Shown here one piece after another: positions 164 through 46,020 of a DNA stretch of 64,000 bases. The notes beneath the pieces were generated by a model that was not told the origin of the DNA, made no database searches, and saw only the letters and a program-made list of their open reading frames with translations. A program made the position numbers and the translations under genes. This DNA comes from Candidatus Binataceae bacterium (lineage in GTDB: Bacteria; Desulfobacterota; Binatia; Binatales; Binataceae). Location of the stretch: contig JASHOJ010000157.1 of assembly GCA_030041155.1 (NCBI GenBank), forward strand, positions 8,328-72,327, given 5' to 3'. Every line of letters starts with the position of its first letter. Within the stretch, counting starts at the first letter, position 1.

Positions 164-179
164 TGGCATAAAGCCTGCT
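164..179 (+). promoter_or_regulatory. candidate sigma-54 (-24/-12) promoter
   Basis: TGGCAT-AAAGC-CTGCT. GG (165-166) and GC (177-178) are at canonical spacing. GC lies 50 nt upstream of ATG 228. The -12 element CTGC is weaker than TTGC. Confidence 0.4.
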
Positions 180-5606: not shown

Positions 5607-5709
5607 CTAATGAGCACCGACTCGCCCGCTATGCCGGCGCATACTACCATTGCGCCGCCATCTCACCAGCCCGAACCGATTATAGCCAAGCCGCGGCGAA
5701 ACACCCCTA

Positions 5710-6786: not shown

Positions 6787-6811
6787 CGAAATTGCGGCTT
6801 AAGCGGCGCGC

Positions 6812-10426: not shown

Positions 10427-10427
10427 A

Positions 10428-11654
10428 ATGGCGGCCACCTTGAAGGACTACATTCCGATCGTCGGCGAGGGCGTGGTGAGCGAGCTGGAGCTCCTTGGCG
10501 CGCGGCTGGCGGGCAAACGCGTGATCAACGTTAACTCCACGCGGGTGGGTGGCGGAGTGGCTGAAATCCTGGGACGGCTGATTCCGCTTCTGAACGAGGT
10601 CGGGCTCGATGCGCGATGGGAAGTGATTCAGGGCACCGAGGATTTTTTCGCTCTGACCAAGCATCTGCACAACGCGCTGCATGGCAAGTCGCACACGTTT
10701 ACCGCGCAGGACCACGCCGTATTCGACGACACGACCGCGCGCAATCTCAAGTCACTCGACCTGGACGGCGACATCATGTTCATCCACGATCCTCAGCCCG
10801 CCGGACTGGTCCGCAGGCGCGCCGAGGCTGGCGGAAGCTGGATCTGGCGCTGCCATATCGATCTGTCGGCGCCTGCGCCGGGCGCGTGGGAATTCATCGA
10901 GCCGCTGGTGCGCCAGTTCGACCTGAGCGTATTTTCATCGCCGCAATTCGCGCGCACTCTTTCGATTCCGCAGGTGCTGGTTTCCCCTTCCATCGATCCT
11001 TTGTCGGACAAAAACCGCGATCTCAGTCAGTCGGAGATAAACGACATCCTGTCGCGGCTGGGCGTACACAGCGACAAGCCGATTGTGACCCAGGTTTCGC
11101 GATTTGATCGTCTGAAGGATCCGGTCGGGGTGCTGGAAGCGTGGCGGCTGGCTCGCAGGCGGGTGGATTGCCAGCTAATTCTTGCTGGCGGCGGCGCCAC
11201 TGACGATCCCGAGGGCGCCGAGGTGCTGCGCGAAGTCCGCGAAAGGTCGGACAATGACCCCGACGTTCATGTGCTCGATCTGCCGCCGACCTCGAACATC
11301 GAAATCAACGCGATCCAGCGCGCCTCGACGGTGATTATCCAGAAGTCGCTGAAGGAGGGCTTCGGGCTCACGGTGTCGGAAGCGCTGTGGAAAGGCAAGC
11401 CGGTTATCGCCGGAGCGGCGGGCGGAATTCCCCTTCAAATCACGCACAAGTATTCGGGCATCCTGACCCACACCATCGAGGGTACGGCATTCTGGATAAA
11501 GCAGTTGTTATCGGAGCCGGAATTTGCGAATCGGCTCGGCACCAACGGACAAAATCACGTGCGCGCCAACTATCTGCTGACCCGGCACATGCGCGATTAC
11601 ATGCTCGCGTTCCTGTTCCTGGCAAATATCAACGAGGACGTCATCAAGCTGTAG
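10428..11654 (+). CDS. treT: trehalose glycosyltransferring synthase-type GT4 glycosyltransferase
   Basis: 408 aa. The N-terminus LKDYIPIVGEG...VINVNSTRVGGGVAEIL..LIPLLNEVGLDARWEVIQG..FF..TK.LHNALHG closely follows archaeal/thermophile TreT. GGAG RBS. Confidence 0.8.
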   Translation: MAATLKDYIPIVGEGVVSELELLGARLAGKRVINVNSTRVGGGVAEILGRLIPLLNEVGLDARWEVIQGTEDFFALTKHLHNALHGKSHTFTAQDHAVFDDTTARNLKSLDLDGDIMFIHDPQPAGLVRRRAEAGGSWIWRCHIDLSAPAPGAWEFIEPLVRQFDLSVFSSPQFARTLSIPQVLVSPSIDPLSDKNRDLSQSEINDILSRLGVHSDKPIVTQVSRFDRLKDPVGVLEAWRLARRRVDCQLILAGGGATDDPEGAEVLREVRERSDNDPDVHVLDLPPTSNIEINAIQRASTVIIQKSLKEGFGLTVSEALWKGKPVIAGAAGGIPLQITHKYSGILTHTIEGTAFWIKQLLSEPEFANRLGTNGQNHVRANYLLTRHMRDYMLAFLFLANINEDVIKL

Positions 11655-13470
11655 CGGTCGAGATGCTCTCGGGCATGTCGGATGAGCGATGGATGCATGG
11701 GCCCTCGTCGAGGGTCAGGTTATGCGCCGTGTTGATGAGCGACACGTGGGAGAACGCCTGCGGAAAGTTGCCGACCTGGCGTCCGAGCGCGAAGTCATAC
11801 TCCTCGGCTAAAAGGCCGACGTCGTTACGCAACGAGAGCAGCCGTTCGAAGATGTCTCGCGCCTCTTCGTATTGACCCGTCATCGCGAGATTGTCGGCTA
11901 GCCAGAAGGTACAGGCTAAAAAGGCGCCCTCGCCCGGCGGCAGTGTATCGATGCCCGACTCGGTGCCATAACGGCTGACAAGGCCGTCGTGCATCAGCTC
12001 GCGCTTGATTGCCTCCATTGTCGATACGACACGCGGATCCTTGGCCTTGAGGAAGCCGACCAGCGGGATCATCAGCAGCGAGGCGTCCAGTTCCTTCGCG
12101 CCGTAATACTGAACGAAAGCGCCACGTTCGGAGTCATAGCCGTGATTGCATACGTCGCGATGGATTTCCTCGCGGAGCGCGCGCCACCTCTCGGCGGGAC
12201 CGTCGAAGTGGAAGCGCTCGACCGCCTTGATCGCACGGTCCACGCCGACCCACGCCATCACCTTGGAATGGGTGAAGTGGCGCTTCTCACCGCGCATCTC
12301 CCAGATGCCGTTGTCCGGCTGCTTCCATCCGGTCTCCAGAAAATCCATCAACGCGCGCTGTACGCGCCAGATTTCGTCGCGCGGCTCAAGTCCACTGCGC
12401 ATCGCGACGTGCAGCGTATCCATCACCTCGCCGTAAACGTCGAGCTGTAGCTGAGAATGGGCCGCATTGCCGACACGAACCGGCTGGCTGTTCTCGTATC
12501 CGGGCAGCCACGGCACCTCGAATTCGGTGAGCATCCGATCTCCCATGATCCCGTACATGATCTGGGTTTCCTGGGGATGCCCGGCCACCGCCCGCACCAG
12601 CCATTCGCGCCACGCCTGGGCCTCGCCCGTGTAACCCGAGATGAGCAGGGCATAGAGCGTCAGCGTGGAATCGCGAAGCCAGCAGTAGCGATAATCCCAG
12701 TTGCGCGTTCCGCCCGGACTCTCCGGCAGCGAAGTGGTCGCCGCCGCCACCATCCCACCCGTCGGACCATAGGTCAGCGCCTTGAGCGTGATGAGCGATC
12801 GGAGCACAACCTCTCGCCATCGCCCCTGAGTGGTGCAGCGCGACGACCATTCTTTCCACCACGCCTCAGTCTCTTCGAGCGCGCGCAGGGGATGGCGCGA
12901 GCTGGGTTCCCTCAGATGCGACGGATACCAGGTGAGGCTAAATGGGATACTCTGGCGCTCGCGGACCTTGAACGTGGCGCACGTGGTGTAGTCCTCGCCG
13001 TGCAGCCGGGCCGGAGTGAGCAGCTTGATTCCATTGGGTCCGGCGATCGCTTTGATTGCATGGTCCTGCGACGTAACCCACGGCATCACGCGCCCGTAAT
13101 CGAATCGTAGCACCAACTCGCAGCGCATCGTAGGGTTTCCGGACACCCCCTGAACCACCCGCACCAGGTCAACGCGATCGCCTCGCTCGGCGAGCGGCAT
13201 GAAGTCGATTACCTTCGCGATCCCATCGTCGCATTCAAATTCCGTCTCCAGCACCAGAGTGTCGTCGCGATACTTGCGGCGCACCTGACGAACCGGACCC
13301 TCCGGCGCGATCAGCCATCTTCCGTGCTCGGGCTTGCCGAGAAGCGCCGCGAAACAGGCCGGCGAATCAAACCGCGGCATGCATAACCAATCGATAGACC
13401 CGTCGCGGCAGACCAGAGCGGCAGTGTGGGTGTTTCCGATTATCGCGTAGTCTTCGATTTTTCCCGGCAT
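11644..13470 (-). CDS. GH15 glycoside hydrolase (glucoamylase/trehalase-type)
   Basis: 608 aa. N-terminus IEDYAIIGNTHTAALV..GSIDWLC.PRFDSPA and WDYRYCWLRDS are typical of the GH15 family. 11-nt convergent overlap with treT. Confidence 0.8.
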   Translation of the reverse strand: MPGKIEDYAIIGNTHTAALVCRDGSIDWLCMPRFDSPACFAALLGKPEHGRWLIAPEGPVRQVRRKYRDDTLVLETEFECDDGIAKVIDFMPLAERGDRVDLVRVVQGVSGNPTMRCELVLRFDYGRVMPWVTSQDHAIKAIAGPNGIKLLTPARLHGEDYTTCATFKVRERQSIPFSLTWYPSHLREPSSRHPLRALEETEAWWKEWSSRCTTQGRWREVVLRSLITLKALTYGPTGGMVAAATTSLPESPGGTRNWDYRYCWLRDSTLTLYALLISGYTGEAQAWREWLVRAVAGHPQETQIMYGIMGDRMLTEFEVPWLPGYENSQPVRVGNAAHSQLQLDVYGEVMDTLHVAMRSGLEPRDEIWRVQRALMDFLETGWKQPDNGIWEMRGEKRHFTHSKVMAWVGVDRAIKAVERFHFDGPAERWRALREEIHRDVCNHGYDSERGAFVQYYGAKELDASLLMIPLVGFLKAKDPRVVSTMEAIKRELMHDGLVSRYGTESGIDTLPPGEGAFLACTFWLADNLAMTGQYEEARDIFERLLSLRNDVGLLAEEYDFALGRQVGNFPQAFSHVSLINTAHNLTLDEGPCIHRSSDMPESISTATA

Positions 13471-13637
13471 GGATTGATTTCAGCACATCAGGCGCGGTTA
13501 ACAACGCCAAATCTGCGCTGGAAAAACACGATTTTACCGTGAAAGAAATTGCTCGTAAAAACCCTTGTCCCTGAGTGATCGAGAGCGGAGCGAATCTTGC
13601 TCATTCCTTCGCGTTGCTGGCTTTCCCGAGGCAAAAC

Positions 13638-14315
13638 ATGAGCAGATTGCCGGCCTTCCCCTGCCCCGCCCTATTTGACTCTCTCAGTCACTCATCAATA
13701 CTCGCGGCCCGCAAGAGCTTGTCTGCCCTGCTTTGTTTATGCGTAACCGCATGCGCCTCGCAATCGAACTATGAGAATCGCAGGTTCTTCAGGCGGAGCG
13801 CGAGTTTATCGAGGGCCAATTTGTTTCAGGTCGACGCGGTTCTGAAGATGCACGGCATCGATGACGAGGCGAAGCTCGGGCGGGTTCCTCCGCAGACGCT
13901 CGGGCGATGGCTCGGCGTCGATGCGGTCGTGTACGGCAAGGTTATCCACTACGAGGCCTTCTATGCGCTTCTAGTCTCCGGATGGATACTCGGCGCCGAT
14001 GTGACGATGGTCTCGACGCACAATGGCGAACAATTATTTTACGCAACCGGCGACCGTTACGATGTAGACTTCGCACCCGCGTTTGACACACTCGATATTG
14101 CGATTAACTCGTGCCTGACGCTCCTGGAGCTGCGCGATGTGGTGCTGGCGCGCAACGAAGAGGAAGACGCGCGCGAGATTGTTCTTGGAATTCCGCGATC
14201 GAAGCGGCTGGAGGCGCAACTTATCGAGGAAGCCACCCGCGGCGAGGTGCGCTTCACGGATGATTGGCCTGACAAAGATCAGGAACTCGCGCGCGGGATA
14301 CCGCAGGGAGAGTGA
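13638..14315 (+). CDS. putative lipoprotein (DUF799/GNA1162-like)
   Basis: ATG 13638. Lipobox LCVTACAS. The central region ...LGVDAVVYGKVIHYE... resembles DUF799 lipoproteins, but the family call is weak. Confidence 0.5.
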   Translation: MSRLPAFPCPALFDSLSHSSILAARKSLSALLCLCVTACASQSNYENRRFFRRSASLSRANLFQVDAVLKMHGIDDEAKLGRVPPQTLGRWLGVDAVVYGKVIHYEAFYALLVSGWILGADVTMVSTHNGEQLFYATGDRYDVDFAPAFDTLDIAINSCLTLLELRDVVLARNEEEDAREIVLGIPRSKRLEAQLIEEATRGEVRFTDDWPDKDQELARGIPQGE

Positions 14316-14439
14316 CAGCGCGCGACTCCGCCATCGGGCGGGAAATTATTACTCCGTTCGCAGCCGATCCATTCGCGCTCGCGTTGTTATTCGGATGATT
14401 ACGCCGATTTCTCCGACTTGTGCCGCACAAGTTTGGCTG

Positions 14440-14455
14440 TGGCATCCGACTTGCT
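14440..14455 (+). promoter_or_regulatory. candidate sigma-54 (-24/-12) promoter
   Basis: TGGCAT-CCGAC-TTGCT, a full match to TGGCAY-N5-TTGCW. GC lies 59 nt upstream of ATG 14513. Confidence 0.55.
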
Positions 14456-14512
14456 GACCTAATGCTGTCCCTTACAGCTTCTCAGCCAGGATTTCGGGGA
14501 AAGGATATAGGC

Positions 14513-15484
14513 ATGTCAGTTTTTGCGGACGGGGCGGCGCTCAATCGCGCGGCGATAATCCTTGCGGGCGGCGACGGCACGCGACTGCGCGAACTAACTC
14601 GCTTCATCATGGGACACGATGTCCCGAAACAGTTTTGTGCTGTAACCAGTGACGAAACCCTGCTCGAGGAGACGCGGCATCGCGTTGAGCGCCTGGTGTC
14701 CCCGAAGAGGACTGTCGTTGTCGTCAACCGGCAGCATCAGTCATTTTACCAACCACTGCTGCCCGATCTGCCGCACTCGCTGCTAATCGAGCAGCCGAGT
14801 AATCGCGGCACGGCGACCGCAATCCTGTTCGGACTTCGGCGACTCGCATTTCTGGGGCGCGACACCGTAGTGGCAATCTTCCCTTCCGATCACTTTGTCG
14901 GTGACGATGAACGCTTCATGAGCCACGTCAGCAATGCGATGGCGGCGGTCGAGGACGCGCCGGACATGGCTGTCATCCTGGGTATCCAGCCCGACTCGCC
15001 CGAGACTTCGTTCGGATGGATCGAGCCGAACACCCGGCTTTCAATCTCGCGTTATGGCGTGTTAGGCGTGCGCCGCTTCTGGGAAAAGCCTCGCCCGGAA
15101 CTTGCTCAGCGCCTGTGGCGCGACGGATGCCTGTGGAACAGTTTCGTGATCATCGCGCGAGCGCCGCGCCTGCATGCGATGCTGGCGGAATGCACCTCGA
15201 AGCTGTTCGTGACATTCAACGCAGCGTTCGCTTCCACCGGCGAACGCCCGGAAGCCGCTATCGTAGAGGATCTGTTCAAGCGTCTGCCGGTCGTTGGATT
15301 TTCCGAGGAAGTGTTGTCGCGATGCCCCGCGAATCTGGCGGTTGAACCGGTAGAGGATGTGCGATGGAACGACCTTGGCGAGCCGGATCGAGTATTGCAC
15401 ACGCTGCGGACTATCGGTCACGAGCCGCAGTGGGTGAAATCTTACGTATATGAATGGCCCAGGGCTTTACGCGCGAACGTCTAG
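14513..15484 (+). CDS. sugar-1-phosphate nucleotidyltransferase (ManC-like, no isomerase domain)
   Basis: ATG 14513 with AAGGA RBS. N-terminus AIILAGGDGTRLRELT....PKQF is the NTP-transferase G-x-G-x-R-L motif. Confidence 0.8.
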   Translation: MSVFADGAALNRAAIILAGGDGTRLRELTRFIMGHDVPKQFCAVTSDETLLEETRHRVERLVSPKRTVVVVNRQHQSFYQPLLPDLPHSLLIEQPSNRGTATAILFGLRRLAFLGRDTVVAIFPSDHFVGDDERFMSHVSNAMAAVEDAPDMAVILGIQPDSPETSFGWIEPNTRLSISRYGVLGVRRFWEKPRPELAQRLWRDGCLWNSFVIIARAPRLHAMLAECTSKLFVTFNAAFASTGERPEAAIVEDLFKRLPVVGFSEEVLSRCPANLAVEPVEDVRWNDLGEPDRVLHTLRTIGHEPQWVKSYVYEWPRALRANV

Positions 15485-15496
15485 GCCATAAAGCGT

Positions 15497-15506
15497 CCCC
15501 CCCCCC
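15497..15506. repeat. homopolymeric C10 tract
   Basis: Ten consecutive C between convergent gene ends. Confidence 0.9.
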
Positions 15507-15510
15507 GCAG

Positions 15511-15546
15511 AGGTCGCGCCGCTTAGCCCCGCTGGCGGCGCGGCCT
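15511..15546. terminator. GC-rich hairpin between convergent genes (possible bidirectional terminator)
   Basis: AGGTCGCGCCGC / GCGGCGCGGCCT forms a 12-bp stem (one G:U) with a 12-nt loop. No clear U-tract. Confidence 0.45.
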
Positions 15547-17294
15547 CACTTTTTCTGAATCGGAACCAAAATCGCGACTGTTTCCGCCGGCATGACGGCG
15601 TGTTTGCCTGAAAGCGCGACTCCGTCCGTCGAGCTCGCTGCGATTTGAAGGTTGTAAATGTCGCTAGCAATTTCTATCTGCTGCGTGGATTGGGCAAAGT
15701 TACAGGCCACGTAACATCCGCCGCGCCGCACACACAGGCATCGCGCGGTTTCATCGAAGCGGATCTCGCTGTCGCCGAGGTCGGGATCGGTGAAATCGGA
15801 ATAGCGGCGGCGCAGCTCGATCATCGTGCGATACCATTCAAGGATCTCGCGATGAGCGGGGTTGAGTCGTTCCGACCAATTGAGCTTCGATCTTCTGAAA
15901 GTCTCCGGCTCCTGCGGGTCTGGAACTTGTTGGGCGTCCTGCGCCAGATATGAAAATTCCTTGCGGCGGCCGGCGGTGACCGCGGCGCCGAGGCGCGGAT
16001 CTGAATGATTGGTGAAATAAAGGAACGGGCTCGAAGCGTTCCACTCCTCGCCCTGGAACAGGAGGGGAACGTATGGCGACGTGAGAAGCAGCGCGGCGGC
16101 AATTTTGAGCATCGCGGGGCTGATCATCATGCCCAGCCGGTCGCCTTGCGCGCGATTTCCAACCTGATCGTGGTTCTGCAGGCATGCGACAAAGCGATCT
16201 GCCGGAAGCCCGGCGGCGGAGCGGCCATGAAGGCGTCCTCTGAACCTGGAGTAACGCCCGTCGTAAACGTAAGGCTGCACGAGCGACGTCGCTATATCGG
16301 CAAGGGCGCCAAAATCCGTGTAATAGTGCGCGCGATCGCCGGTCAGGTATGCATGGATCGCGTGATGAAAATCATCGCTCCACTGTGCGTCGATGCCGTA
16401 GCCGCCCGCCTCTCGCGCGGTCACGATGCGCGGCTGATTCAGGTCGCTCTCGGCAATGAGGACGAGCCGCCGGCCGAGATGCGCTTCGAGCGCGTGTACT
16501 TCCGTGGCAAGCTGCTCGAGAAAATGGATCGCCGACGAATCAAAGATGGCGTGAACCGCATCGAGCCTGAGCGCATCGAAATGATAGTCGCGCAGCCACA
16601 TCAGTGCGTTGTCGCATAGAAATCGCCGAACCTCCGCGGCATCCTCACCATCCAGATTTATCGCGTCACCCCATGGAGTCTTGTAGCGATCGGTCGCGTA
16701 CGGCCCAAAGATGCCGGTGTAATTCCCGTCTGGACCGAAGTGGTTGTAAACGACATCCAGAACGGCGGCCATGCCGCGAATGTGGCACTGGTTGACGAAG
16801 TTTTTAAGTCCGATTGGCCCGCCGTACTCATGATGGGGCGCGAACAGATCGACCCCGTCGTAGCCCCATCCATGCGCTCCCGGAAACTCAGCCACCGGCA
16901 TCAGTTCCACATGCGTGACGCCGAGATCTTTCAAATAATCAAGTTTTTCTATTGCGGATTCGAACGTGCCTTTGGGAGTGAACGTGCCTATATGGCATTC
17001 ATAGACAAGGGCGGAGGAAAGCGGCGGCGCATTCCATCCCGAGTCATTCCATTCAAAACATGAGAGGTCGAGCGGGCGCGAAGCGCCGTGCACACCATGC
17101 GGCTGCCACGATGATCTCGGATCTGGCACTGGATCGCGGCCGTCGAGGCTGAATGAGTAGTCGGATTGCGAAAGCTCGGGCGGTATTTCGCACGCCCACC
17201 ACCCGCCGCCGTGCTCGCTCATCGGCAGGCGCGCATCTCCGATAACCACTGCCGCGGCTTCCGCGCGCGGCGCCCATACCCGGCGGATACTCAC
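15546..17294 (-). CDS. treZ: malto-oligosyltrehalose trehalohydrolase
   Basis: 582 aa. GH13 motifs DVVYNHFGP, ALRLDAVHAI, LIAESDLN and QNHDQVGNR. 4-nt overlap with treY. Confidence 0.9.
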   Translation of the reverse strand: MSIRRVWAPRAEAAAVVIGDARLPMSEHGGGWWACEIPPELSQSDYSFSLDGRDPVPDPRSSWQPHGVHGASRPLDLSCFEWNDSGWNAPPLSSALVYECHIGTFTPKGTFESAIEKLDYLKDLGVTHVELMPVAEFPGAHGWGYDGVDLFAPHHEYGGPIGLKNFVNQCHIRGMAAVLDVVYNHFGPDGNYTGIFGPYATDRYKTPWGDAINLDGEDAAEVRRFLCDNALMWLRDYHFDALRLDAVHAIFDSSAIHFLEQLATEVHALEAHLGRRLVLIAESDLNQPRIVTAREAGGYGIDAQWSDDFHHAIHAYLTGDRAHYYTDFGALADIATSLVQPYVYDGRYSRFRGRLHGRSAAGLPADRFVACLQNHDQVGNRAQGDRLGMMISPAMLKIAAALLLTSPYVPLLFQGEEWNASSPFLYFTNHSDPRLGAAVTAGRRKEFSYLAQDAQQVPDPQEPETFRRSKLNWSERLNPAHREILEWYRTMIELRRRYSDFTDPDLGDSEIRFDETARCLCVRRGGCYVACNFAQSTQQIEIASDIYNLQIAASSTDGVALSGKHAVMPAETVAILVPIQKK

Positions 17295-19945
17295 GCCGCG
17301 GCGCCATCGCGCGCAACTAAAGCCACCGGAAACCGCGCGAACAGATCCGCGACGCGCGCATCCGCGGAAATTTCTTCATCGGTCAGACGATTGATCCATC
17401 TGCCCGGCGGCAGCCGCACCGAAGTATCCTGATAATCGCCTCCACTCCCCATCACGAGCCGCGGCATCACGGCCGCAACCCGTTCACCGCGCATAAAAGC
17501 CACTACATTGCCGGATTTGGGGCCGACCACCTCAATCGGCGTGAATGCCGCACCGGGTGTGAAACAATCGCTAAAGGACTTGCGCAGTTCGAGGCCGCGC
17601 TTGATAAGCCACATCTTTGGCGCTCCGGTATCGCCGCGCGCCATCACTTTTTCAGGTTCCAGGCTGTCAAGGCTTTGAAGCAGCTTGCGCCGCCGCTCAA
17701 AATCAACCGGCCTGCGATTGTCGGGATCTACCAGGGTGAGATTCCATAATTCGCAGCCCTGGTAAAAGTCCGGCACCCCGCAGGCGGTGATCTTGAGAAG
17801 CGTCATCGAAAGTGAGTTGATGCGCCCGGGTTCGACCAGCGACTGGGCAAATTCGCGAAGCGAGAACATAAATTCTTCGCTGTCGAACAGCGCGTTGATA
17901 TAGGAGTTGAGCGCGTCTTCGTATTGCTGATTCGGGTCAGTCCAAGTGGTGTAGACCTTGGCCTCGCGCACCAGCTTGCGCGCGTATTCGAGCATCCGCT
18001 CGCGTTCGATCGGCCACGCTCCGACCATGGTCTGATAGATATGGTATTCGGTGTTGCGATCGGGCATCGTACCAGTGCGCCACGGCTCGTTCATCGCGGA
18101 CCATTTCTGCACCGCGGCGCCCCACCTTTCGGGAATCTCTGACAGCAGGTAAAGCCGCGCGCGAACGTCCTCGCCGCGCTTGCTGTCATGGGTCGAGGTG
18201 CCGGCCATGGTGCGCGGCCATCGTGAATTCATCCGGCGGCACCATTCGTAAAAACATCGCGGCTCGATTCCGAACTGGTCGGGATTTCCGCCCACTTCGT
18301 TGAGCGCGATCAGGCGGTTGAACGTGTAGAAGGCCGTATCTTCAACGCCCTTCGCCATAACCGCGGCCGAGACCTGCTGAAACCGCATCGCCAGCTCCCG
18401 CGCAAGATCTCCGGCAACGTCTCGAACCAGGATGTCGCGCAGGAAGTCGAACAGCCGCTGGTCCAGATCCAAACGGTACGCCTTGGCATCCTCAATAGCT
18501 GACTCGATTTGCCGCCGATCCTCGGTCGAACGATCGCCGTTATCGCGGACATAAGTTCGGTAAACCTTGAAGCAGGCAAGCGCGGCGCGCAGCACCTCGT
18601 GACACTCGTGGCGCGTATAGTCGCGATGCAGCCGGTGATTCTCGCATACCGCGAGGAACAAGCCAGTCAGGCGGTTTACGTCGCTGCCGAGCGACTCGCG
18701 CATCGCTAGCTGCTTCTTGGCTTTTAGATAGGTCTGGAAATCGACCGATTCACCGGTGAAACCACGGTAAAGCTCGGTCATCGGCTCGGCGCCGGCGGGA
18801 TCGACAAACAAACCGCCCGCCATGTTCATGAAATCGTAGCCGGTGGTGCCATCGATCGGCCAGTTTTCGCGAATCGCCTCGCCGGTGCTAAGAATTTTTT
18901 CGGCAACAATCCACGCATCGGGGCACGCCTCTCGCAGTCGCTCGAAATACTCCAGCGGATCGCGCAGCCCGTCTGGATGATCGACGCGCAGGCCGGTGAC
19001 TTCACCGGTGGCGACCAGCTTGAGCGTCCTCGTATGAGTGGCGCGGAAGACAGTCGGGTCCTCCATCCTGAGCCCGACCAGAGAGTTGATATCGAAGAAG
19101 CGGCGGTAGCCGACATCGCGCGCCGCCATCCTCCAGTACGCGAGCCGGTAATTCTGTCGCTCCAGGAACTGATGCAAGCGGTCGGAATCGGAATTGAGCG
19201 CGGCCAGCACTCGATCGATTTCGGCGGCCAGATCCGGATTTTCCCCGATCAGCCGCTCCAGCCATCCGTACAGGACTTTCTTGTCGCGCTGGCGGCGAAC
19301 AATACTTCCTGCGTCGGTAACCGCGGGCGATGGCAGCTCGCTAAGTGCATCGGCCAGCGCGGCCAACTCTTCGTTGTGCGCCGCCGACGCGGCGGTGTTG
19401 AGGATTTCGTACAGCGACCGCGGCGCGACCGGAAATGATCGATCCTCGTAGCGGACCACGAAATCGGGCCCCTTCCGCACCACCGTAAACTTGTGGCTCT
19501 CGAGCAGCACCCCATACTGATCGGCAAGGACCGGCAAAAGGACAGTGTTATGGAGGCGGCGCTCCGGCGGTTCCCAATCGACATCGAAAAAGGCCGCGAA
19601 CGGGCTCGAAGGTCCGTTTTCCAGCACGTCCCACCACCATGGGTTTTCGCGGCCGGTTATCGCCATGTGATTGGGGACCACATCCAGTAGCTGACCCATC
19701 GAATGTTTTTTCAACGCCGCGACGAGTTTGGCGTACCCGCGTTCGCCACCCCACTCCTCGTTCATTCTCGAATGATCGGTCACGTCGTAGCCGTGAGTGC
19801 TGCCGGGCGCCGCCTGTGAGCATTGCGGACAATACAGGCAATCGATTCCGAGCGCCGCGAGATATGGAATGAGCTTCGCGGTCGCGGCGAAGTCGCAATC
19901 CGGATTTATCTGGACCCGATAGGTTGCGGTCGGTTCAAAGCGCAC
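17291..19945 (-). CDS. treY: malto-oligosyltrehalose synthase
   Basis: 884 aa. N-terminus ATYRVQ...YL..LGIDCLY.....A.PGSTHGYDVTDH and GLRVDHPDGL. Confidence 0.9.
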   Translation of the reverse strand: MRFEPTATYRVQINPDCDFAATAKLIPYLAALGIDCLYCPQCSQAAPGSTHGYDVTDHSRMNEEWGGERGYAKLVAALKKHSMGQLLDVVPNHMAITGRENPWWWDVLENGPSSPFAAFFDVDWEPPERRLHNTVLLPVLADQYGVLLESHKFTVVRKGPDFVVRYEDRSFPVAPRSLYEILNTAASAAHNEELAALADALSELPSPAVTDAGSIVRRQRDKKVLYGWLERLIGENPDLAAEIDRVLAALNSDSDRLHQFLERQNYRLAYWRMAARDVGYRRFFDINSLVGLRMEDPTVFRATHTRTLKLVATGEVTGLRVDHPDGLRDPLEYFERLREACPDAWIVAEKILSTGEAIRENWPIDGTTGYDFMNMAGGLFVDPAGAEPMTELYRGFTGESVDFQTYLKAKKQLAMRESLGSDVNRLTGLFLAVCENHRLHRDYTRHECHEVLRAALACFKVYRTYVRDNGDRSTEDRRQIESAIEDAKAYRLDLDQRLFDFLRDILVRDVAGDLARELAMRFQQVSAAVMAKGVEDTAFYTFNRLIALNEVGGNPDQFGIEPRCFYEWCRRMNSRWPRTMAGTSTHDSKRGEDVRARLYLLSEIPERWGAAVQKWSAMNEPWRTGTMPDRNTEYHIYQTMVGAWPIERERMLEYARKLVREAKVYTTWTDPNQQYEDALNSYINALFDSEEFMFSLREFAQSLVEPGRINSLSMTLLKITACGVPDFYQGCELWNLTLVDPDNRRPVDFERRRKLLQSLDSLEPEKVMARGDTGAPKMWLIKRGLELRKSFSDCFTPGAAFTPIEVVGPKSGNVVAFMRGERVAAVMPRLVMGSGGDYQDTSVRLPPGRWINRLTDEEISADARVADLFARFPVALVARDGAAA

Positions 19946-22067
19946 GGCACATCACGATTAGCGATCGAGGATTTACCTCAATCTTATCGCCCGCGTTGAC
20001 CGGACGCCCGGGTTTAACGGGTGGCCTACCGGACGTGTCCATCTCTTTTCTCCATCGCTTGCCCCATTTGTCGGAAGGCAGGACGAACTCAAGCGGCTCG
20101 TGGCCCGCGTGAAACATCAGGTAGAACGAGTCGTCGCGGACCTTGCGTCCATACTCATCCGAGCCCGCTATTTCGCCGTTATAGAACACCGCGAGCGACT
20201 TGGCATTGCCGTCGTTCCAGTCCACATCCGACATTTCGTTGCCATCCGGCCGAAACCATCCGATATCGCCGTTGACGGAGCCGCGAATCGCGCGCCCCTG
20301 AAGCCATCTGCGGCGCCGGAATACCGGATGCGCGCGGCTGAACGACGACATCCAGCGGCAAAACGCGAGCTGATCGCGATCGACGTGCTCCCAGTCAAGC
20401 CACGAAAGCTCATTATCCTGGCAATAGGTGTTGTTGTTGCCGGATTTGGTCTGTCCGATCTCATCGCCCGCGCGCAGCATCGGCACCCCCAGGGACAGGA
20501 ACAGAGTCGCGACAAAGTTGCGCATCTGGCGTTTGCGCAGGGCGTTTATCGCGGGATCGTCGGTTGGACCTTCCACGCCGCAGTTCCATGACCGATTATC
20601 CGAGGATCCGTCGCGATTATCTTCGCCGTTGGCCTCGTTGTGCCGATCGTTGTAGCTGACCAGATCTCTTAGCGTAAACCCGTCATGCGCGGTGATAAAG
20701 TTGATGCTCGCGTAAGGCCGCCGTCCGCCGCTTTCGTACAGATCCGAGCTGCCGGTAAGGCGCATTCCCAGTTCACTCAGGCTGCGATCCGCGCCGCGCC
20801 AATAATCGCGCAGACAATCGCGATATTTCCCGTTCCATTCCGACCACAACACGGGAAAGTTGCCGACCTGATATCCGCCGTCACCCAGATCCCACGGCTC
20901 GGCGATCAGCTTGACCTGCGAGAGAGTCGGATCCTGATGGATGATATCGAAGAACGCCCCCAGACGGTCAACCTCGTGCAGTTCGCGAGCCAGCGCCGAC
21001 GCCAAATCAAATCGGAATCCGTCAATATGGTATTCGATTACCCAATAGCGCAAGCTATCCATGATTAGCTGCAGCGACCGCGGATGACGCATGTTCAGCG
21101 TGTTTCCGCATCCGGTGTAATCGACGTAATAGCGCGGATTATCCTCGGCCGTGCGGTAGTACGCGAGATTGTCTATCCCCCTGAAGCATAGGGTGGGTCC
21201 GAGATGATTTCCCTCGGCGGTATGGTTGTAGACCACGTCGAGTATTACTTCGAGACCCTCGCGATGCAGCGCGCGGACCATCCCCTTGAATTCCGCCACC
21301 TGATCGCCAGCCGAGCCGACCGAAGAGAATCGGCTATCGGGCGCAAAGTATCCAATCGAGTTGTATCCCCAATAATTGGTCAGACCGCGATCGAGTAGCT
21401 GCCGGTCGGAAACCGAATGATGGATCGGCATCAATTCCACCGCCGTCACGCCGAGCGACTTGATGTACTCGATAGCGGAGGGCTGCGCGAGGCCGGCATA
21501 AGTTCCGCGCAGTTCCTCTGGTATTCCGCGATTTCTCGCGGTGAATCCCTTGACGTGGAGTTCGTAAATCACCGTCCGATGCCACGGAATTCGTAGCAGC
21601 GTGTCGCCGTGCCAGTCGAAATATGGGTCCGCGACAACGCTTTTGGGGACAAACGGCGCGCTATCGCGATCGTCACGGCTTAAGTCCTCGTCCTCGTTTC
21701 CGATCGTATAGCCGAACACCGCGTTGTCCCATCGCACTGCGCCGTCAATCGCCTTGGCGTAGGGATCGAGCAGCAGTTTTGCGGGATTGAAACGGTGTCC
21801 TTTGGCCGGATCGTAGTCGCCCTGAACCCTATAGCCGTAACGCAGGCCCGGCTTGGCGCGCGGCAGGTAGACATGCCAGACCAGGTCGGTCCGCTCTTCC
21901 AGCGCGATTCGCTCTGTCTGCTGATCAGGCTTTGAAGGATCTTCGAACAGGCACAACTCGACGCCGGTCGCGTTCTCGCTGAAGAGCGAGAAATTGACGC
22001 CCGCACCGTCCCAAATCGCGCCCTGAGGATACGGCGTTCCTGGCGTGATGCGCCGTGATTCGCTCAT
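19935..22067 (-). CDS. glgX: glycogen debranching enzyme GlgX/TreX
   Basis: 710 aa. VILDVVYNHTAEG, GFRFDLASAL, LIAEPWDLG and FITAHDGFTLRDLVSYN. Overlaps the treY start by 11 nt. Confidence 0.9.
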   Translation of the reverse strand: MSESRRITPGTPYPQGAIWDGAGVNFSLFSENATGVELCLFEDPSKPDQQTERIALEERTDLVWHVYLPRAKPGLRYGYRVQGDYDPAKGHRFNPAKLLLDPYAKAIDGAVRWDNAVFGYTIGNEDEDLSRDDRDSAPFVPKSVVADPYFDWHGDTLLRIPWHRTVIYELHVKGFTARNRGIPEELRGTYAGLAQPSAIEYIKSLGVTAVELMPIHHSVSDRQLLDRGLTNYWGYNSIGYFAPDSRFSSVGSAGDQVAEFKGMVRALHREGLEVILDVVYNHTAEGNHLGPTLCFRGIDNLAYYRTAEDNPRYYVDYTGCGNTLNMRHPRSLQLIMDSLRYWVIEYHIDGFRFDLASALARELHEVDRLGAFFDIIHQDPTLSQVKLIAEPWDLGDGGYQVGNFPVLWSEWNGKYRDCLRDYWRGADRSLSELGMRLTGSSDLYESGGRRPYASINFITAHDGFTLRDLVSYNDRHNEANGEDNRDGSSDNRSWNCGVEGPTDDPAINALRKRQMRNFVATLFLSLGVPMLRAGDEIGQTKSGNNNTYCQDNELSWLDWEHVDRDQLAFCRWMSSFSRAHPVFRRRRWLQGRAIRGSVNGDIGWFRPDGNEMSDVDWNDGNAKSLAVFYNGEIAGSDEYGRKVRDDSFYLMFHAGHEPLEFVLPSDKWGKRWRKEMDTSGRPPVKPGRPVNAGDKIEVNPRSLIVMCRAL

Positions 22068-22222
22068 TGTCGTATGCGTCCATGTGACTGGCCGTCGCCA
22101 CCATTTTGAGATGAGTCGCGCCTAAATCCGGCGTGAAACACGATTCGGCAAGCGCCGCTCCTCAGTGGGCTCGTCCGGAACGGTTCTTCCGGGTTGCGAC
22201 GGACAGAAACGCATTCAAGAAG

Positions 22223-22238
22223 ACGCAATTTCGAGGCC
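22223..22238 (-). promoter_or_regulatory. candidate sigma-54 (-24/-12) promoter
   Basis: The minus strand reads TGGCCT-CGAAA-TTGCG with exact spacing. It lies about 157 nt upstream of the glgX/treX ATG (22067). TGGCC rather than TGGCA. Confidence 0.4.
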
Positions 22239-22260
22239 ATGCACCGGTCGGATGCCTGCC

Positions 22261-22512
22261 TTATAGGTGCTGGCGAGAATTGAATACCCCTGCGGAAAGC
22301 AGAAATGCGCCAGCAATTATGGTTCCGGCGCTTATCGGAATTGGTATCGATCTGATGCTCTCGCGCTCGGACGGAACAGACATTGGACCGAGCTTCGCCA
22401 CGTGCGTGCTATCGTGTGTTACGAACGCGGGCGTCACCAAGCTTAGCACTCCAAGAACTATAAGAACCGCGCCGATTAGCGCGATGATCTTCACCGTCCC
22501 GGCCGCCGACAA
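22261..22512 (-). CDS. small membrane protein (83 aa, two hydrophobic helices)
   Basis: IIALIGAVLIVLGVLSLV and ISAGTIIAGAFLLSAGV. Last gene of the stress operon. Confidence 0.45.
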   Translation of the reverse strand: MSAAGTVKIIALIGAVLIVLGVLSLVTPAFVTHDSTHVAKLGPMSVPSERESIRSIPIPISAGTIIAGAFLLSAGVFNSRQHL

Positions 22513-22569
22513 CCCGGTCTTACAGCGCGCCGCTCGTGCGATGGCAGATAACTGGACCTCGGCGCGTAC

Positions 22570-22968
22570 TCACGCGGGATCGTTCTGCGGTGACGGCCGT
22601 TGCTGATACCCGGCCTGAGACGCACTTTTTCGATGGGTCGCGACCCAGCCAAGAATCGCGCCGACGATCACCGCGAGCAATCCGCTAAGCGCAAGCGACA
22701 GCCACCACGCAATCCAGATGTGCAGCAGAACGATCAATGCGCCGAACAGAAATACTCCGCCGGTGCTCAGCGCCGTTATCCCGAGCAGACTCGCCACCAG
22801 CCGGTCGGTCAATTCGGTAAACAGGAGCCCGAGCGCGTTCTCGAAGATACGCATCTCGGCCTTGCCAATCTCGGCCACGTCGTCGACCAGGCGCTCGGCC
22901 AGCGTCGTCCAATTGTTGTCCCCATCATGCGCAAGCGGATGATCCTGGCGCGATCTTTCAGTGTTCAT
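22570..22968 (-). CDS. holin-X / YqjE-like (DUF1469) membrane protein
   Basis: 132 aa. An amphipathic N-terminus is followed by two TM helices (LLGITALSTGGVFLFGALIVLL, WWLSLALSGLLAVIVGAILGW). Position after DUF883-type genes as in yqjD-yqjE loci. Confidence 0.55.
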   Translation of the reverse strand: MNTERSRQDHPLAHDGDNNWTTLAERLVDDVAEIGKAEMRIFENALGLLFTELTDRLVASLLGITALSTGGVFLFGALIVLLHIWIAWWLSLALSGLLAVIVGAILGWVATHRKSASQAGYQQRPSPQNDPA

Positions 22969-23254
22969 GCTCCAAGCTCTCGTCGTCCGCGGTCAGCATC
23001 CTTTTCCGAACCGCGCCCGACATCCCGCCGATCATTGCGCCCAGAATTATGAAGCGGCGATCCAGCATTCCGATCATAAAACCGGTCGCGCACGCGACAC
23101 AGATCGACGTGCCTAGATGACGTTTCAGCATCCGCTCCGGCGACAGGCGATTCTGAACCCTCTCGACTTTATTGTTGACCGCCTCGAGGGTTTCGTGGAG
23201 CCGCTCTTTAGCCGCTTCCAGATGCTGCTCCAGCTCGGCGCTCTCGTCTTCCAT
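22958..23254 (-). CDS. coiled-coil plus C-terminal TM protein (YqjD/DUF883-like architecture)
   Basis: 98 aa. Charged helical N-terminus (ELEQHLEAAKERLHETLEAVNNKVERV), then a TM segment. Overlaps the upstream ORF by 47 nt, so the start is uncertain. Confidence 0.45.
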   Translation of the reverse strand: MEDESAELEQHLEAAKERLHETLEAVNNKVERVQNRLSPERMLKRHLGTSICVACATGFMIGMLDRRFIILGAMIGGMSGAVRKRMLTADDESLEHEH

Positions 23255-23477
23255 CTCCGTTACCTTCGCTCAGGGCTTCGCGAATCAACTCGGGCATCGC
23301 GAGACGGATCGAGTAGATGAGCATGGTCCGCCCAATCCACGTATGCAGTCCGCCACCGACGAAAAATCCGGCGCCACACGCGATAGTCATCGACGTAAGC
23401 GGACGCTTCCTGATCCGCCGCGTAATCGCGGCCACTCCATATTCCGCCTCGGCTTGAGAATACGGCGACGCGGCCAT
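23208..23477 (-). CDS. small membrane protein (89 aa)
   Basis: RKRPLTSMTIACGAGFFVGGGL resembles the DUF883 C-terminal anchor. The tail overlaps the next ORF. Confidence 0.4.
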   Translation of the reverse strand: MAASPYSQAEAEYGVAAITRRIRKRPLTSMTIACGAGFFVGGGLHTWIGRTMLIYSIRLAMPELIREALSEGNGDGRRERRAGAASGSG

Positions 23478-23493
23478 CAGACTTTTCCTGTCT

Positions 23494-23748
23494 CTACGAT
23501 GAGAGCCGACGCAGCAGATGCGCCGCTATGTATCCGACCAGAAACGCGCCCGCCACCGCTATCAGCGGATCGCGCTTGACGAAGCTGGTCAACGTCTCGC
23601 TCAGTTCGCTCGCATACTCGAGCGACCTGTCACCATACTCGCGCACCGTGTCGTAGCTGTCCTCCATCATCCGACGGCCTCTGCGCCGAGCTTCGTGGAG
23701 AGCGTCACTCGCGGCGTTCCTTGCACCTTCCAAAGACTCATTGTCCAT
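23494..23748 (-). CDS. DUF883 (YqjD/ElaB-like) membrane-anchored stress protein
   Basis: ATG 23748 with AGAGG 8 nt upstream (TTG 23793 is less likely). C-terminus KRDPLIAVAGAFLVGYIAAHLLRR is the family-typical anchor. Confidence 0.65.
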   Translation of the reverse strand: MDNESLEGARNAASDALHEARRRGRRMMEDSYDTVREYGDRSLEYASELSETLTSFVKRDPLIAVAGAFLVGYIAAHLLRRLSS

Positions 23749-23832: not shown

Positions 23833-24045
23833 CTTAACTATCCAAGTATGAATTGATGAAGTGCGCAGGCGGACGCGGACCGTGAAAAAATGTGAGGACG
23901 TGAACCTGCGAGCGGTCCCGAAATTCGGCTCGCTGCTTGCCCCGACGCCAACCGCAATTCCTGATTTTCGACTCCCTCGTTGTCGGACTCATACAGCGCC
24001 TCGGTTCGGCCGACCATAGCTGAAAGACTCACAGTTCCGGTAAAA

Positions 24046-24060
24046 TTTACATAATGTAAA
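24046..24060. promoter_or_regulatory. perfect 15-bp palindrome TTTACATAATGTAAA in an AT-rich divergent control region
   Basis: Read directly. It lies about 215 bp from the -24 element at 23832 and about 200 bp from ATG 24263. Confidence 0.35.
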
Positions 24061-24262: not shown

Positions 24263-25624
24263 ATGCCTCATCAGACGAGAATTCTGGTAGCGGAGGACGA
24301 CGTCTCGACACATGAATCCTGGCGCGAATCCCTCAATTCGTGGGGATATAAAGTCGATGTCGCCGAAGACGGCGTCCACGCTCTTGAGATAATCAAGACT
24401 TTCCAGCCCGATTTGCTGCTCGCGGATCTGAAGATGCCGCGCAAGAACGGTCTTGAGCTTCTGCGCGAGATCCGCGACATGGGCCTCAAGCTCTCGACGA
24501 TTGTCATTTCGGGCGAAGGCGATATCCCGGAAGCGGTTGAGGCGATCAAGCTCGGCGCGATCGATTACTTGCGCAAGCCCGTTGATCCGCCGCATCTGCG
24601 CCAGATGCTCCGGACACTGGCCGACAGTATCGAAATGCGCGAGGAGAACCTGACGCTGCGGCGACGGCTGGCCGAGGTCGGCGAATTAGGCCCGCTTTAC
24701 GGCCGCTCGCCCGCGATGCGCAAGGTGATAACCGCGATCGAGCGAGTCGCGCAATCGGCGGCCTCGGTGGTGATTTCGGGCGAAAGCGGAACCGGCAAAG
24801 AGTTGGTCGCTCGAACCATTCACGAGATGTCGCCGCGGCGCAATGCCGCTTACGTCGGCCTCAACTGCGCCGCTATTCCTGAAACGCTGATGGAGAGCGA
24901 GCTATTCGGGCATGAGCGCGGAGCGTTCACCGGCGCCGACAAGCGCCGCGAAGGATGCTTCGAAACCGCCAACGGTGGAACCCTGCTGCTCGACGAAATC
25001 ACCGAGATGAAGCCGGAGTTGCAGGCCAAGCTTCTGCGCGTGATCGAAGAGCAGCGGCTGCGCCGGGTGGGCGGAACCGCCGAAATCACCCTCGATGTTC
25101 GGGTGCTGGCCGCTTCCAATCGCGACATCGAACAGGCAGTGCGCGATGGCAAGCTGCGCGAGGATCTTTTCTATCGACTGAACGTCTTCTCTATAATGCT
25201 CCCGCCACTTCGCGAGCGCGGCGACGACCTGCCGCTGCTGGTCGATTCGTTTGTTCAGCATTATTCCGAGCGCAACAACAAACACGTAGTAGGCGTTGAT
25301 GAGGAATGCCTTGCCGCACTGCGGGCTCATCCGTGGCCCGGCAACGTGCGCCAGTTGCGCAACGTGATCGAACGCGCACTTATCGTGTGCGACGGCAAGA
25401 TGATCGGCAGACACGACCTGCCCGAGGAATTCCGCTCCGCCGCTCAGGGCGAAGCCGGTTACTTCAAGATAAGGCTCGGAACTTCGCTCGATGACGTGGA
25501 GCGCGAAGTCATTTCGCGCACCATCGAATTCACCGGCGGAAACAAGACCCGCGCCGCGCAAGTGCTCGGAGTGAGCGCCAAAACCCTCTATAACAAGCTT
25601 GATCGCTATCAGCAGGAAGGCTGA
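24263..25624 (+). CDS. sigma-54-dependent response regulator (NtrC family), no adjacent kinase
   Basis: 453 aa. Receiver domain (LLLADLKMP), AAA+ domain with GESGTGKE and GAFTGA, C-terminal Fis-type HTH (NKTRAAQVLGVSAKTLYNKL). Confidence 0.9.
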   Translation: MPHQTRILVAEDDVSTHESWRESLNSWGYKVDVAEDGVHALEIIKTFQPDLLLADLKMPRKNGLELLREIRDMGLKLSTIVISGEGDIPEAVEAIKLGAIDYLRKPVDPPHLRQMLRTLADSIEMREENLTLRRRLAEVGELGPLYGRSPAMRKVITAIERVAQSAASVVISGESGTGKELVARTIHEMSPRRNAAYVGLNCAAIPETLMESELFGHERGAFTGADKRREGCFETANGGTLLLDEITEMKPELQAKLLRVIEEQRLRRVGGTAEITLDVRVLAASNRDIEQAVRDGKLREDLFYRLNVFSIMLPPLRERGDDLPLLVDSFVQHYSERNNKHVVGVDEECLAALRAHPWPGNVRQLRNVIERALIVCDGKMIGRHDLPEEFRSAAQGEAGYFKIRLGTSLDDVEREVISRTIEFTGGNKTRAAQVLGVSAKTLYNKLDRYQQEG

Positions 25625-25768
25625 GACGAGTAAAGCTGACGCGCGAAGCGCATGCTCCTCCAGTAGAGCCCTGACCCTTTTCACGCTAACCCGCTCGCAA
25701 GGCGCTGGAAAAATATACTCACGTAACGGCGTTCCCCTGAGTTTCCGATACGCCAGAAAAATCACTGA

Positions 25769-25784
25769 TGGCCTCTCTCTTGCT
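25769..25784 (+). promoter_or_regulatory. candidate sigma-54 (-24/-12) promoter
   Basis: TGGCCT-CTCTC-TTGCT with exact spacing. GC lies 49 nt upstream of the csbD ATG 25832. Confidence 0.5.
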
Positions 25785-25831: not shown

Positions 25832-26023
25832 ATGAACAGCGATATCATGAAAGGAAAACTCAAGCAGCTCTCGGGCGAAATCAAGCGCAAATGGGGCCAG
25901 GTAACTGACGATGATCTCACTGAGTCACAGGGTGACTTTGACAAGCTGGTCGGAAGAATCCAGCAACGCTCCGGTGAGAGACGCGAGGCGATCGAGAAAT
26001 GGCTCCACTCTGAAGGCATGTAA
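25832..26023 (+). CDS. csbD: CsbD family stress protein
   Basis: ATG 25832 after GGAG. KGKLKQLSGEIKRKWGQVTDDDL...GDFDKLVGRIQQRSG is the CsbD repeat signature. Confidence 0.8.
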   Translation: MNSDIMKGKLKQLSGEIKRKWGQVTDDDLTESQGDFDKLVGRIQQRSGERREAIEKWLHSEGM

Positions 26024-38765: not shown

Positions 38766-38774
38766 ATACTCGCG

Positions 38775-43640: not shown

Positions 43641-43688
43641 AATGCAGTTTTTCTCCGATTTGTTGCGTAGGCAGGAGCATCAAATCCA

Positions 43689-45980: not shown

Positions 45981-46020
45981 GGCGGAACAAAAAAATCGCT
46001 AGCGGCAAGAGTTCAATCTA

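Follow-up and report, generated by a model that had tools for sequence, protein, structure and literature searches.

What controls trehalose synthesis in Binatia? These bacteria are abundant in soils and uncultured, and to our knowledge the regulation of their stress protection is experimentally uncharted. The question is raised by a stretch of 64,000 nucleotides (nt) from a Candidatus Binataceae bacterium (GCA_030041155.1, contig JASHOJ010000157.1, positions 8,328 to 72,327; hereafter the window, with a G+C content of ~60%), the first half of which is occupied by a large trehalose cluster. Within this cluster, a gene for a ManC-like sugar-1-phosphate nucleotidyltransferase and the operon glgX-treY-treZ are each preceded by a -24/-12 element of the sigma-54 type. 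Our comparison with related loci suggests that each of them probably has a sigma-54-dependent promoter and that both belong to one conserved Binatia-type stress/trehalose regulon. The regulon would also take in csbD, an operon for small membrane proteins and orf166 and, in relatives, genes for BON-domain, DUF1328 and DUF6496 proteins.

The -24/-12 elements of the window

Both elements read TGGC-N7-TTGC with exact spacing. The element ahead of the ManC-like gene, TGGCATCCGACTTGCT, is a full match to TGGCAY-N5-TTGCW and lies where a preliminary description of this DNA had placed it. The element ahead of glgX, TGGCCTCGAAATTGCG, departs from TGGCAY-N5-TTGCW at -22 (C) and -11 (G); the preliminary description had read the motif correctly and placed it one base off, at 22238-22223. 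Three further elements precede orf166, the small-protein operon and csbD (Table 1). Two promoter subtypes were apparent, TGGCAT at the ManC-like gene versus TGGCCT at csbD and glgX.

The pattern used in the preliminary description, TGGC[AC][AT]-N5-[TC]TGC, was counted on both strands and compared with 100 dinucleotide shuffles. Six matches were found against 1.25 expected, and none of the 100 shuffles reached six; the earlier estimate of about one chance match was thus sound. All five sites listed earlier are intergenic and correctly oriented. The sixth match, which had been missed, is not: it lies at 40751-40737 (minus strand), antisense within a thiE-like gene, and was rejected. A generic sigma-54 matrix was built around the consensus YTGGCACG-N4-TTGCW, compiled from 186 promoters (as quoted in PMC2725144), with frequencies that are our own approximation. 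At a score of at least 8.5, the level of the glgX site, this matrix gave 26 matches against 27-28 expected from Markov shuffles, which is not above chance; at a score of at least 14.5 it gave three against 0.5-0.65, a modest excess only. Because match counts so close to Markov shuffles prove nothing by themselves, they were set aside as an argument, and placement and conservation were used instead.

Placement separated the sites from the background. The top three generic matches in the 128 kilobases (kb) of two-strand sequence (164, 14440 and 23832) were all intergenic, co-oriented with the next gene and 49-69 nt from its start. We defined promoter-competent positions as non-coding positions at most 250 nt upstream of a co-oriented gene; they make up 4.7% of strand positions. 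The probability that the top three generic matches all fall in such positions was 1e-4, and the probability that at least five of the six pattern matches do so was 1.3e-6. When match density was compared between coding and intergenic sequence, the ManC-like site stood out, the top matches being all intergenic, and the glgX site did not stand out by score; by this measure the earlier promoter claim held for the former only.

Other candidate sites were rejected. The site at 9776-9761 (minus strand, score 10.7) abuts the only plausible start codon of a sugar-binding protein gene, and the site at 24219 (plus strand) ahead of the activator gene EBP1 has GT in place of GC at -12. The site at 20977-20992 (minus strand, TGGCTCGCGAACTGCA, score 13.1) lies inside glgX and encodes the conserved GlgX peptide ALARELH. 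The same match recurs in glgX of three relatives, L165 (16423), L167 (16421) and L171 (6962), and is a systematic false positive for sigma-54 scans of GlgX genes. No convincing -24/-12 element was found at the transporter, DUF5752-TreT or GH15 genes (5710-13470).

Conservation in related loci

Relatives were found by protein searches with the ManC-like protein and TreY; they came from Binataceae, Candidatus Binatus and Binatia, with 43-64% identity, and 14 loci carrying ManC-like or TreY relatives were fetched for comparison. Every ManC-like orthologue examined (8 loci, 43-61% protein identity) had a -24/-12 element 32-107 nt upstream. When the upstream regions were aligned, this element was the sole conserved block, and the flanks did not align. 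Since a generic score of at least 12 is expected only about 3e-5 times per position, this recurrence is far beyond chance. The sigma-54-type promoter of the ManC-like gene is, on this comparison, very likely real.

A perfect palindrome, ACTTGTGCCGCACAAGT (14416-14432), was also noted 8 nt upstream of the ManC-like -24 element. Other palindromes occupy the same place in relatives (TTTTGCGCTTCGCAAAA in L167, TGCGCTTTTGCGCA in L161, and TTGGCGCCAA in L164 and L169). With its symmetry kept and its sequence changing, the palindrome could be a protein site or a hairpin.

A TGGCCY-N5-TTGC variant, with C at -22, was found ahead of glgX-treY-treZ or csbD(-BON)-glgX-treY-treZ in six related loci (Table 1). 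A generic score of at least 10 is expected about 1e-4 times per position, or about 0.02 times per 200-nt upstream region, so the recurrence of the variant in at least four independent genomes is not due to chance. The glgX site was accepted because of this positional conservation, despite its chance-level score, and a functional sigma-54-type promoter at glgX is likely. The csbD genes of the window and L171 are 69% identical. In L171, the 657-nt apparent gap between csbD and glgX (5236-5892) holds an uncalled remnant of BON-like coding sequence (TIITAKVKKALHGQVPGSDIHVSTVAGEL), which is probably due to a frameshift in the gene or to faulty assembly. The small-protein operon has a homologue in L161 that carries TGGCGCATTTGTTGCA at the same place (55% identity for the 84-amino-acid protein and 33% for the Holin-X-like one), and in L161 the homologue of orf166 has TGGTACAGCCCTTGCT ahead of it and a BON-domain gene behind it. 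A clade matrix trained on the relatives' sites only ranked the five sites listed earlier as the top five of the window, in the order 25769, 14440, 164, 23832 and 22239; being partly circular for the TGGCCT subtype, it counts as supporting evidence, not as proof.

Scans of genome and metagenome contigs for close relatives of GlgX were uninformative, with matches of at most 69% identity; the closest were glycogen-type paralogues without treY/treZ and with no site upstream. An exact-sequence look-up of the window GlgX gave no match.

Table 1. Features of the window, and elements at orthologous genes of related loci with their distance to the gene start. Generic and clade denote scores with the respective matrix; aa, amino acids.
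Feature	Locus	Position	Strand	Remarks
-24/-12 element TGGCATAAAGCCTGCT, orf166	window	164-179	plus	generic 15.7 (best in window); 49 nt to start
orf166	window	228-728	plus	predicted sigma-54 regulon member; homologue in L161 (36% identity)
MalK-type sugar ATP-binding cassette (ABC) transporter genes	window	5710-9761	minus	
DUF5752 and TreT-type trehalose synthase genes	window	9752-11654	plus	
GH15 trehalase-like gene	window	11644-13470	minus	
Lipoprotein gene	window	13575-14315	plus	
A/T-rich motif CGGGAAATTATTACTC	window	14339-14354	plus	~100 nt upstream of ManC-like -24 element; relatives-only score 13.9 (third in window)
-24/-12 element TGGCATCCGACTTGCT, ManC-like gene	window	14440-14455	plus	generic 15.0 (second in window), clade 18.9; 58 nt to ATG 14513, with AAAGGA ribosome-binding site
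ManC-like sugar-1-phosphate nucleotidyltransferase gene	window	14513-15484	plus	323 aa; NTP_transferase domain alone (Pfam PF00483, 9e-24)
treZ	window	15546-17294	minus	NCBIfam equivalog, 725.9 bits (cut-off 538.8)
treY	window	17291-19945	minus	NCBIfam equivalog, 907.9 bits (cut-off 498.65)
glgX/treX	window	19935-22067	minus	NCBIfam equivalog, 1019.6 bits (cut-off 640.9)
-24/-12 element TGGCCTCGAAATTGCG, glgX/treX	window	22239-22224	minus	generic 8.6, clade 12.1 (fifth in window); 157 nt to ATG 22067
Operon of five small-protein genes	window	22261-23748	minus	84, 89, 98, 132 and 83 aa; same strand as glgX, directly upstream
-24/-12 element TGGCAACAGATTTGCT, small-protein operon	window	23832-23817	minus	generic 14.7 (third in window); ~69 nt to ATG 23748 of the 84-aa protein gene
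EBP1, response-regulator-type sigma-54 activator gene	window	24263-25624	plus	REC, AAA+ with GAFTGA, HTH_8
-24/-12 element TGGCCTCTCTCTTGCT, csbD	window	25769-25784	plus	generic 11.2, clade 22.1 (best in window); 48 nt to ATG 25832
csbD-like general stress protein gene	window	25832-26023	plus	Pfam PF05532, 1e-14
ManC-like element TGGCACTCCAATTGCT	L161			46 nt
ManC-like element TGGCATTCAGTTTGCT	L163			47 nt
ManC-like element TGGCATCCAACTTGCT	L164			~32 nt
ManC-like element TGGCATTCGCTTTGCT	L165			47 nt
ManC-like element TGGCATTCACCTTGCT	L167			48 nt
ManC-like element TGGCATCCGACTTGCC	L169			38 nt
ManC-like element CGGCATAGCGATTGCT	L173			71 nt
ManC-like element CGGCACATCCATTGCT	L174			107 nt
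glgX element TGGCCTTGGTCTTGCG	L163			164 nt (window 157 nt); aligns with TGGCCTCGAAATTGCG
glgX element TGGCCTTGCTCTTGCT	L173			67 nt
glgX element TGGCCCTGCTCTTGCT	L174			91 nt
csbD element TGGCCTTGGTATTGCT	L165, L167			57 nt before csbD of csbD-BON-glgX-treY-treZ; aligns with window TGGCCTCGAAATTGCG
csbD element TGGCCTCGCTCTTGCT	L171			53 nt before csbD, then uncalled BON-like remnant and glgX-treY-treZ

Very strong -24/-12 elements (scores 15-18) were seen elsewhere in the relatives (L163 7796, L165 9280, L167 9299, L167 1874, L171 12462 and L173 6), ahead of small genes for DUF6496, DUF1328 and unknown proteins of 134 and 89 aa. This suggests a larger small-stress-protein regulon, of which the window shows part. 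Homologues of the kinase, BON, DUF1328 and DUF6496 genes were sought in the window, and only an unrelated kinase beside EBP2, a second activator gene, was found. Strong sigma-54-like elements were also observed upstream of stand-alone glgX genes, with no treY/treZ after them, in many Acidobacteriota (Thermoanaerobaculia, Vicinamibacterales). They lie 16-83 nt upstream of the GlgX match with scores of 11-15.5, e.g. TGGCACACCCCTTGCC (loci L005-L008, L010, L012, L016, L020, L024, L027, L031, L037, L039, L042, L051 and L052). Several of these loci have a second element on the opposite strand, and in L051 a gene for a sigma-54 activator is divergently oriented. Glycogen debranching under sigma-54 may be common among soil bacteria.

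EBP1 as candidate activator, and alternative explanations

The EBP1 gene sits between two of the promoters (23832 and 25769). Its product matched Sigma54_activat (PF00158, 4.6e-70), Response_reg and HTH_8 in Pfam, with GAFTGA at residue 220. It reached no NCBIfam equivalog cut-off, the best being AtoC with 443 bits against 714, indicating that it is not an orthologue of a characterised activator. Orthologues of EBP1 in L171 (76% identity) and L161 (68%) are better conserved than their neighbours. In L171, the activator gene, a sigma-54 element, csbD, the BON remnant and glgX-treY-treZ follow each other on one strand. In L172 (Candidatus Binatus), TGGCACTTCTCTTGCT, a 117-aa frame and treY come after the C-terminus of an EBP1 orthologue. 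In L161, the EBP1 orthologue and a PAS histidine kinase adjoin the homologous small-protein operon, and -24/-12 elements are present at this operon, at the ManC-like gene and at an orf166-BON pair. The preliminary description had linked the trehalose genes to the neighbouring sigma-54 stress module; the EBP1 orthologues directly upstream of tre genes in L171 and L172 support this link. This synteny with tre and stress genes makes EBP1 the best candidate activator, and we regard the case for EBP1 as the common activator as evenly balanced.

A Gibbs sampler was applied to the sequence from 25 to 200 nt upstream of 23 elements. It returned an A/T-rich motif, approximately CGTGAAWAAATTAC, with an information content of 14.1 bits against at most 11.2 in shuffled controls. 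Counted upstream from the -24 element, the motif is 50-76 nt away at csbD- and glgX-type promoters and 100-180 nt away at ManC-like ones; in L173 and L174, one copy lies between the divergent ManC-like and glgX promoters. With a motif matrix built from the relatives only, the copies at the ManC-like gene (14339-14354), the small-protein operon (23881-23896) and csbD (25705-25720) were among the top ten matches of the window. By our own comparison the motif resembles the IHF consensus WATCAAN4TTR, and it may be an activator site, a bending (IHF-like) site or mere A/T-rich intergenic DNA. The k-mers enriched upstream of the promoters were mostly CG-rich words of low complexity and gave no information.

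These observations are consistent with the following mechanism. Sigma-54 RNA polymerase would bind the TGGCAT-N5-TTGCT elements and stay in a closed complex, which a phosphorylated response-regulator-type activator, most likely EBP1, would open. The activator would bind upstream, possibly aided by DNA bending at the A/T-rich CGTGAAWAAATTAC motif, and, through its GAFTGA loop, use ATP hydrolysis to remodel the complex. The outcome would be a coordinated induction of trehalose synthesis from glycogen, nucleoside diphosphate (NDP)-sugar supply and general-stress proteins, via a signal sensed by a histidine kinase. The cargo alone suggests that this signal is osmotic, desiccation or stationary-phase stress.

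Two features of the neighbourhood were also noted. The 430-nt gap between the small-protein operon and the plus-strand EBP1 gene holds a perfect A/T-rich palindrome, TTTACATAATGTAAA (24046-24060), which overlaps matches of the A/T-rich motif and a sigma-70-like site (24028-24055); a possible role is operator or promoter of the activator gene. At 37647-40280 lies a second pair, a PAS-HisKA kinase and EBP2 (PF00158, 3.7e-71, with the loop variant GSFTGA), and no target promoter of EBP2 was recognised in the window.

Several points bear on placing both the ManC-like gene and glgX-treY-treZ under sigma-54 in one EBP1-dependent regulon, most of them against it. The generic score of the glgX site (8.6) is equalled or bettered by about 20 matches in coding sequence, and its clade score of 12.1 compares with 12.0 for the best coding match. 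The clade matrix includes glgX and csbD sites that were picked partly for resembling those of the window. With the relatives-only matrix, no A/T-rich motif was detected ahead of the glgX element, and the motif could simply mirror A/T-rich intergenic DNA. That no sigma-70-like promoter was found near the ManC-like or glgX promoter speaks for sigma-54, but the scan used the E. coli consensus and says little for this phylum. In five relatives (L163, L165, L167, L173 and L174) no activator gene lies within 10 kb, and the assignment of EBP1 rests on three genomes. In the window, no cognate kinase adjoins EBP1. There is also no rpoN gene within the 64 kb, and sigma-54 was inferred because two activator genes with a Sigma54_activat domain are present.

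These points bear on three other explanations. That the matches to a short G+C-rich pattern arose by chance and have no promoter function is hardly credible: the total matrix counts are close to those of Markov-shuffled sequence and the pattern was defined after the sites had been seen, but the placement of at least five of six matches in promoter-competent positions (P = 1.3e-6) and the recurrence of the elements at orthologous genes in up to eight other loci with non-aligning flanks both speak against it. It is unlikely, but by no means as far-fetched, that the ManC-like promoter alone is real, with no more than a weak relic or a chance match ahead of glgX. Transcription of the tre operon would then come mainly from read-through, through the small-protein operon, from the strong sigma-54 promoter at 23832, or from an unrecognised sigma-70-type promoter. 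Besides the chance-level generic score of 8.6, this agrees with the arrangement of the five small genes and glgX-treY-treZ, which share a strand and are 190 nt apart. Neither the surroundings of the ManC-like and glgX promoters nor the stretch between 22261 and 22067 showed a terminator-like hairpin, so read-through from 23832 may add to or replace initiation at 22239. It also agrees with L165, L167 and L171, where glgX has no element of its own and is apparently co-transcribed with csbD(-BON), suggesting that operon-style read-through is the ancestral arrangement. However, the unusual C at -22 and a nearly equal distance are kept in L163, where csbD-BON are gone, and the element lies directly ahead of glgX in L173 and L174. 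Read-through from 23832 would itself still be sigma-54 dependent; with either initiation at 22239 or read-through, the glgX operon would thus depend on sigma-54. The 157-nt glgX leader contains no Rfam family, the only Rfam match of the window being a tRNA elsewhere.

Slightly less improbable is that all five promoters are sigma-54 dependent but do not form one regulon, with different activators and signals for the trehalose genes and for the csbD and small-protein genes, the proximity of EBP1 being incidental. The five relatives with conserved promoters and no activator gene within 10 kb fit this explanation, as do the two subtypes (TGGCAT at the ManC-like gene versus TGGCCT at csbD and glgX), the weakness of the shared upstream motif and its absence at glgX, and the second activator-kinase pair at 37647-40280. 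On the other hand, an EBP1 orthologue directly precedes csbD-glgX-treY-treZ in L171 and treY in L172, TGGCCT is the subtype of both the csbD and the glgX promoter, and in L173 and L174 the divergent ManC-like and glgX promoters have a single A/T-rich motif between them. A common sigma-54 regulon of trehalose and stress genes remains our preferred reading.

Gene content and comparison with known systems

The frames of glgX, treY and treZ overlap at 19935-19945 and 17291-17294; the operon spans 15546-22067 on the minus strand and is convergent with the ManC-like gene. All three earlier gene calls were upheld by NCBIfam equivalog cut-offs (Table 1), and the predicted product route is trehalose synthesis from glycogen or maltodextrin. 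The ManC-like protein scored 121.5 bits against TIGR01479 (cut-off 372.95), covering model positions 3-274 of 467; it lies below the curated score for ManC and is without the C-terminal isomerase domain. "ManC-like", the name given in the preliminary description, is thus the right naming level for this NTP_transferase-only protein. The nearest solved structures are 2cu2 and 2x5s, short mannose-1-phosphate guanylyltransferases, and an identical 323-aa product is present in the protein database. Most products of the small-protein operon have a hydrophobic C-terminal segment, and the 132-aa one resembles Holin-X/YqjE. Their Pfam matches were weak (PF07332, 23 bits; DUF883_C, E=0.053) and all Pfam and NCBIfam matches were sub-threshold; family names were therefore dropped. 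The orf166 product had neither a Pfam nor an NCBIfam match.

A second trehalose route with turnover genes (TreT-type, GH15 trehalase-like and ABC transporter; 5710-13470) adjoins treXYZ. TreT requires NDP-glucose, and the ManC-like enzyme might be its supplier. Farther away, three successive large plus-strand frames (782, 763 and 744 aa; 41292-48255) have strong coding statistics and no Pfam match; they may be paralogues.

The promoter class is known, and the regulon content is the unusual part. As at classical sigma-54 promoters (e.g. NtrC-glnAp2), GG and GC lie exactly 10 base pairs apart in TGGCAY-N5-TTGCT, the element stands 30-160 nt before a start codon, and a candidate A/T-rich element, which by our own comparison resembles an IHF site, lies upstream of three of the five window promoters. 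The adjacent activator with REC, AAA+ (GAFTGA) and HTH_8 domains likewise follows the NtrC architecture. The two elements thus agree with sigma-54 promoters in sequence, conservation and activator, and in placement at both sites; the score is above background only at 14440. They differ from the classical consensus in the preference of the clade for T at -21 and -11 and in the TGGCCT subtype with C at -22. The cargo differs as well: classical sigma-54 promoters serve nitrogen assimilation, flagella and transport/catabolism, whereas the cargo here is TreX/Y/Z, an NDP-sugar enzyme, CsbD, BON and small membrane proteins.

In the literature searched, neither sigma-54 control of treY/treZ nor sigma-54 in Binatia was described, and searches on RpoN with trehalose and on sigma-54 with CsbD returned nothing comparable. 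The locus would extend the known sigma-54 cargo to compatible-solute synthesis from glycogen. It also provides a testable model, from a two-component signal through an AAA+ activator to sigma-54, for desiccation and osmoprotection in a dominant soil lineage. Because promoters and activator are short and conserved, a heterologous host would suffice for testing the model, with no need for a culture of the bacterium, and the clade matrix can be used for full-regulon reconstruction across metagenome-assembled genomes.

In studied bacteria, cargo of this kind (trehalose, CsbD, BON and small membrane proteins) is typically under RpoS, SigB or EcfG. RpoS governs the general stress regulon of E. coli (otsBA, osmY, yqjD/elaB), SigB that of Bacillus (csbD) and EcfG that of Alphaproteobacteria. 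We propose tentatively, with more doubt than confidence, that in Binatia, and perhaps in soil Acidobacteriota, sigma-54 with one dedicated response-regulator activator, of the EBP1 family, might serve as a general-stress/desiccation master switch in place of these factors. On an equally tentative footing, the genes under this switch might be those for CsbD, for BON and small membrane-anchored proteins, for an NDP-sugar enzyme and for making trehalose from glycogen. The regulon proposed here would resemble that of Geobacter sulfurreducens in being a broad sigma-54 regulon of a deltaproteobacterium-like lineage; the RpoN regulon of that species has the consensus TTGGCACGGTTTTTGCT, and stress genes changed on RpoN over-expression (PMC2725144). 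There, however, mapping assigned GSU2302, the trehalose phosphatase gene, to an RpoD promoter, and no RpoN element was recognisable at the stress genes (PMC2725144), whereas here the -24/-12 elements lie directly on trehalose and stress genes. With the RpoS, SigB and EcfG regulons, the Binatia genes share the trehalose pathway, CsbD, BON/OsmY-type proteins and small membrane-anchored proteins. In contrast to those regulons, the -24/-12 promoters here would need an ATP-dependent activator, and switching would occur by a two-component phosphorelay that acts on a closed complex, in place of sigma competition or an anti-sigma cascade.

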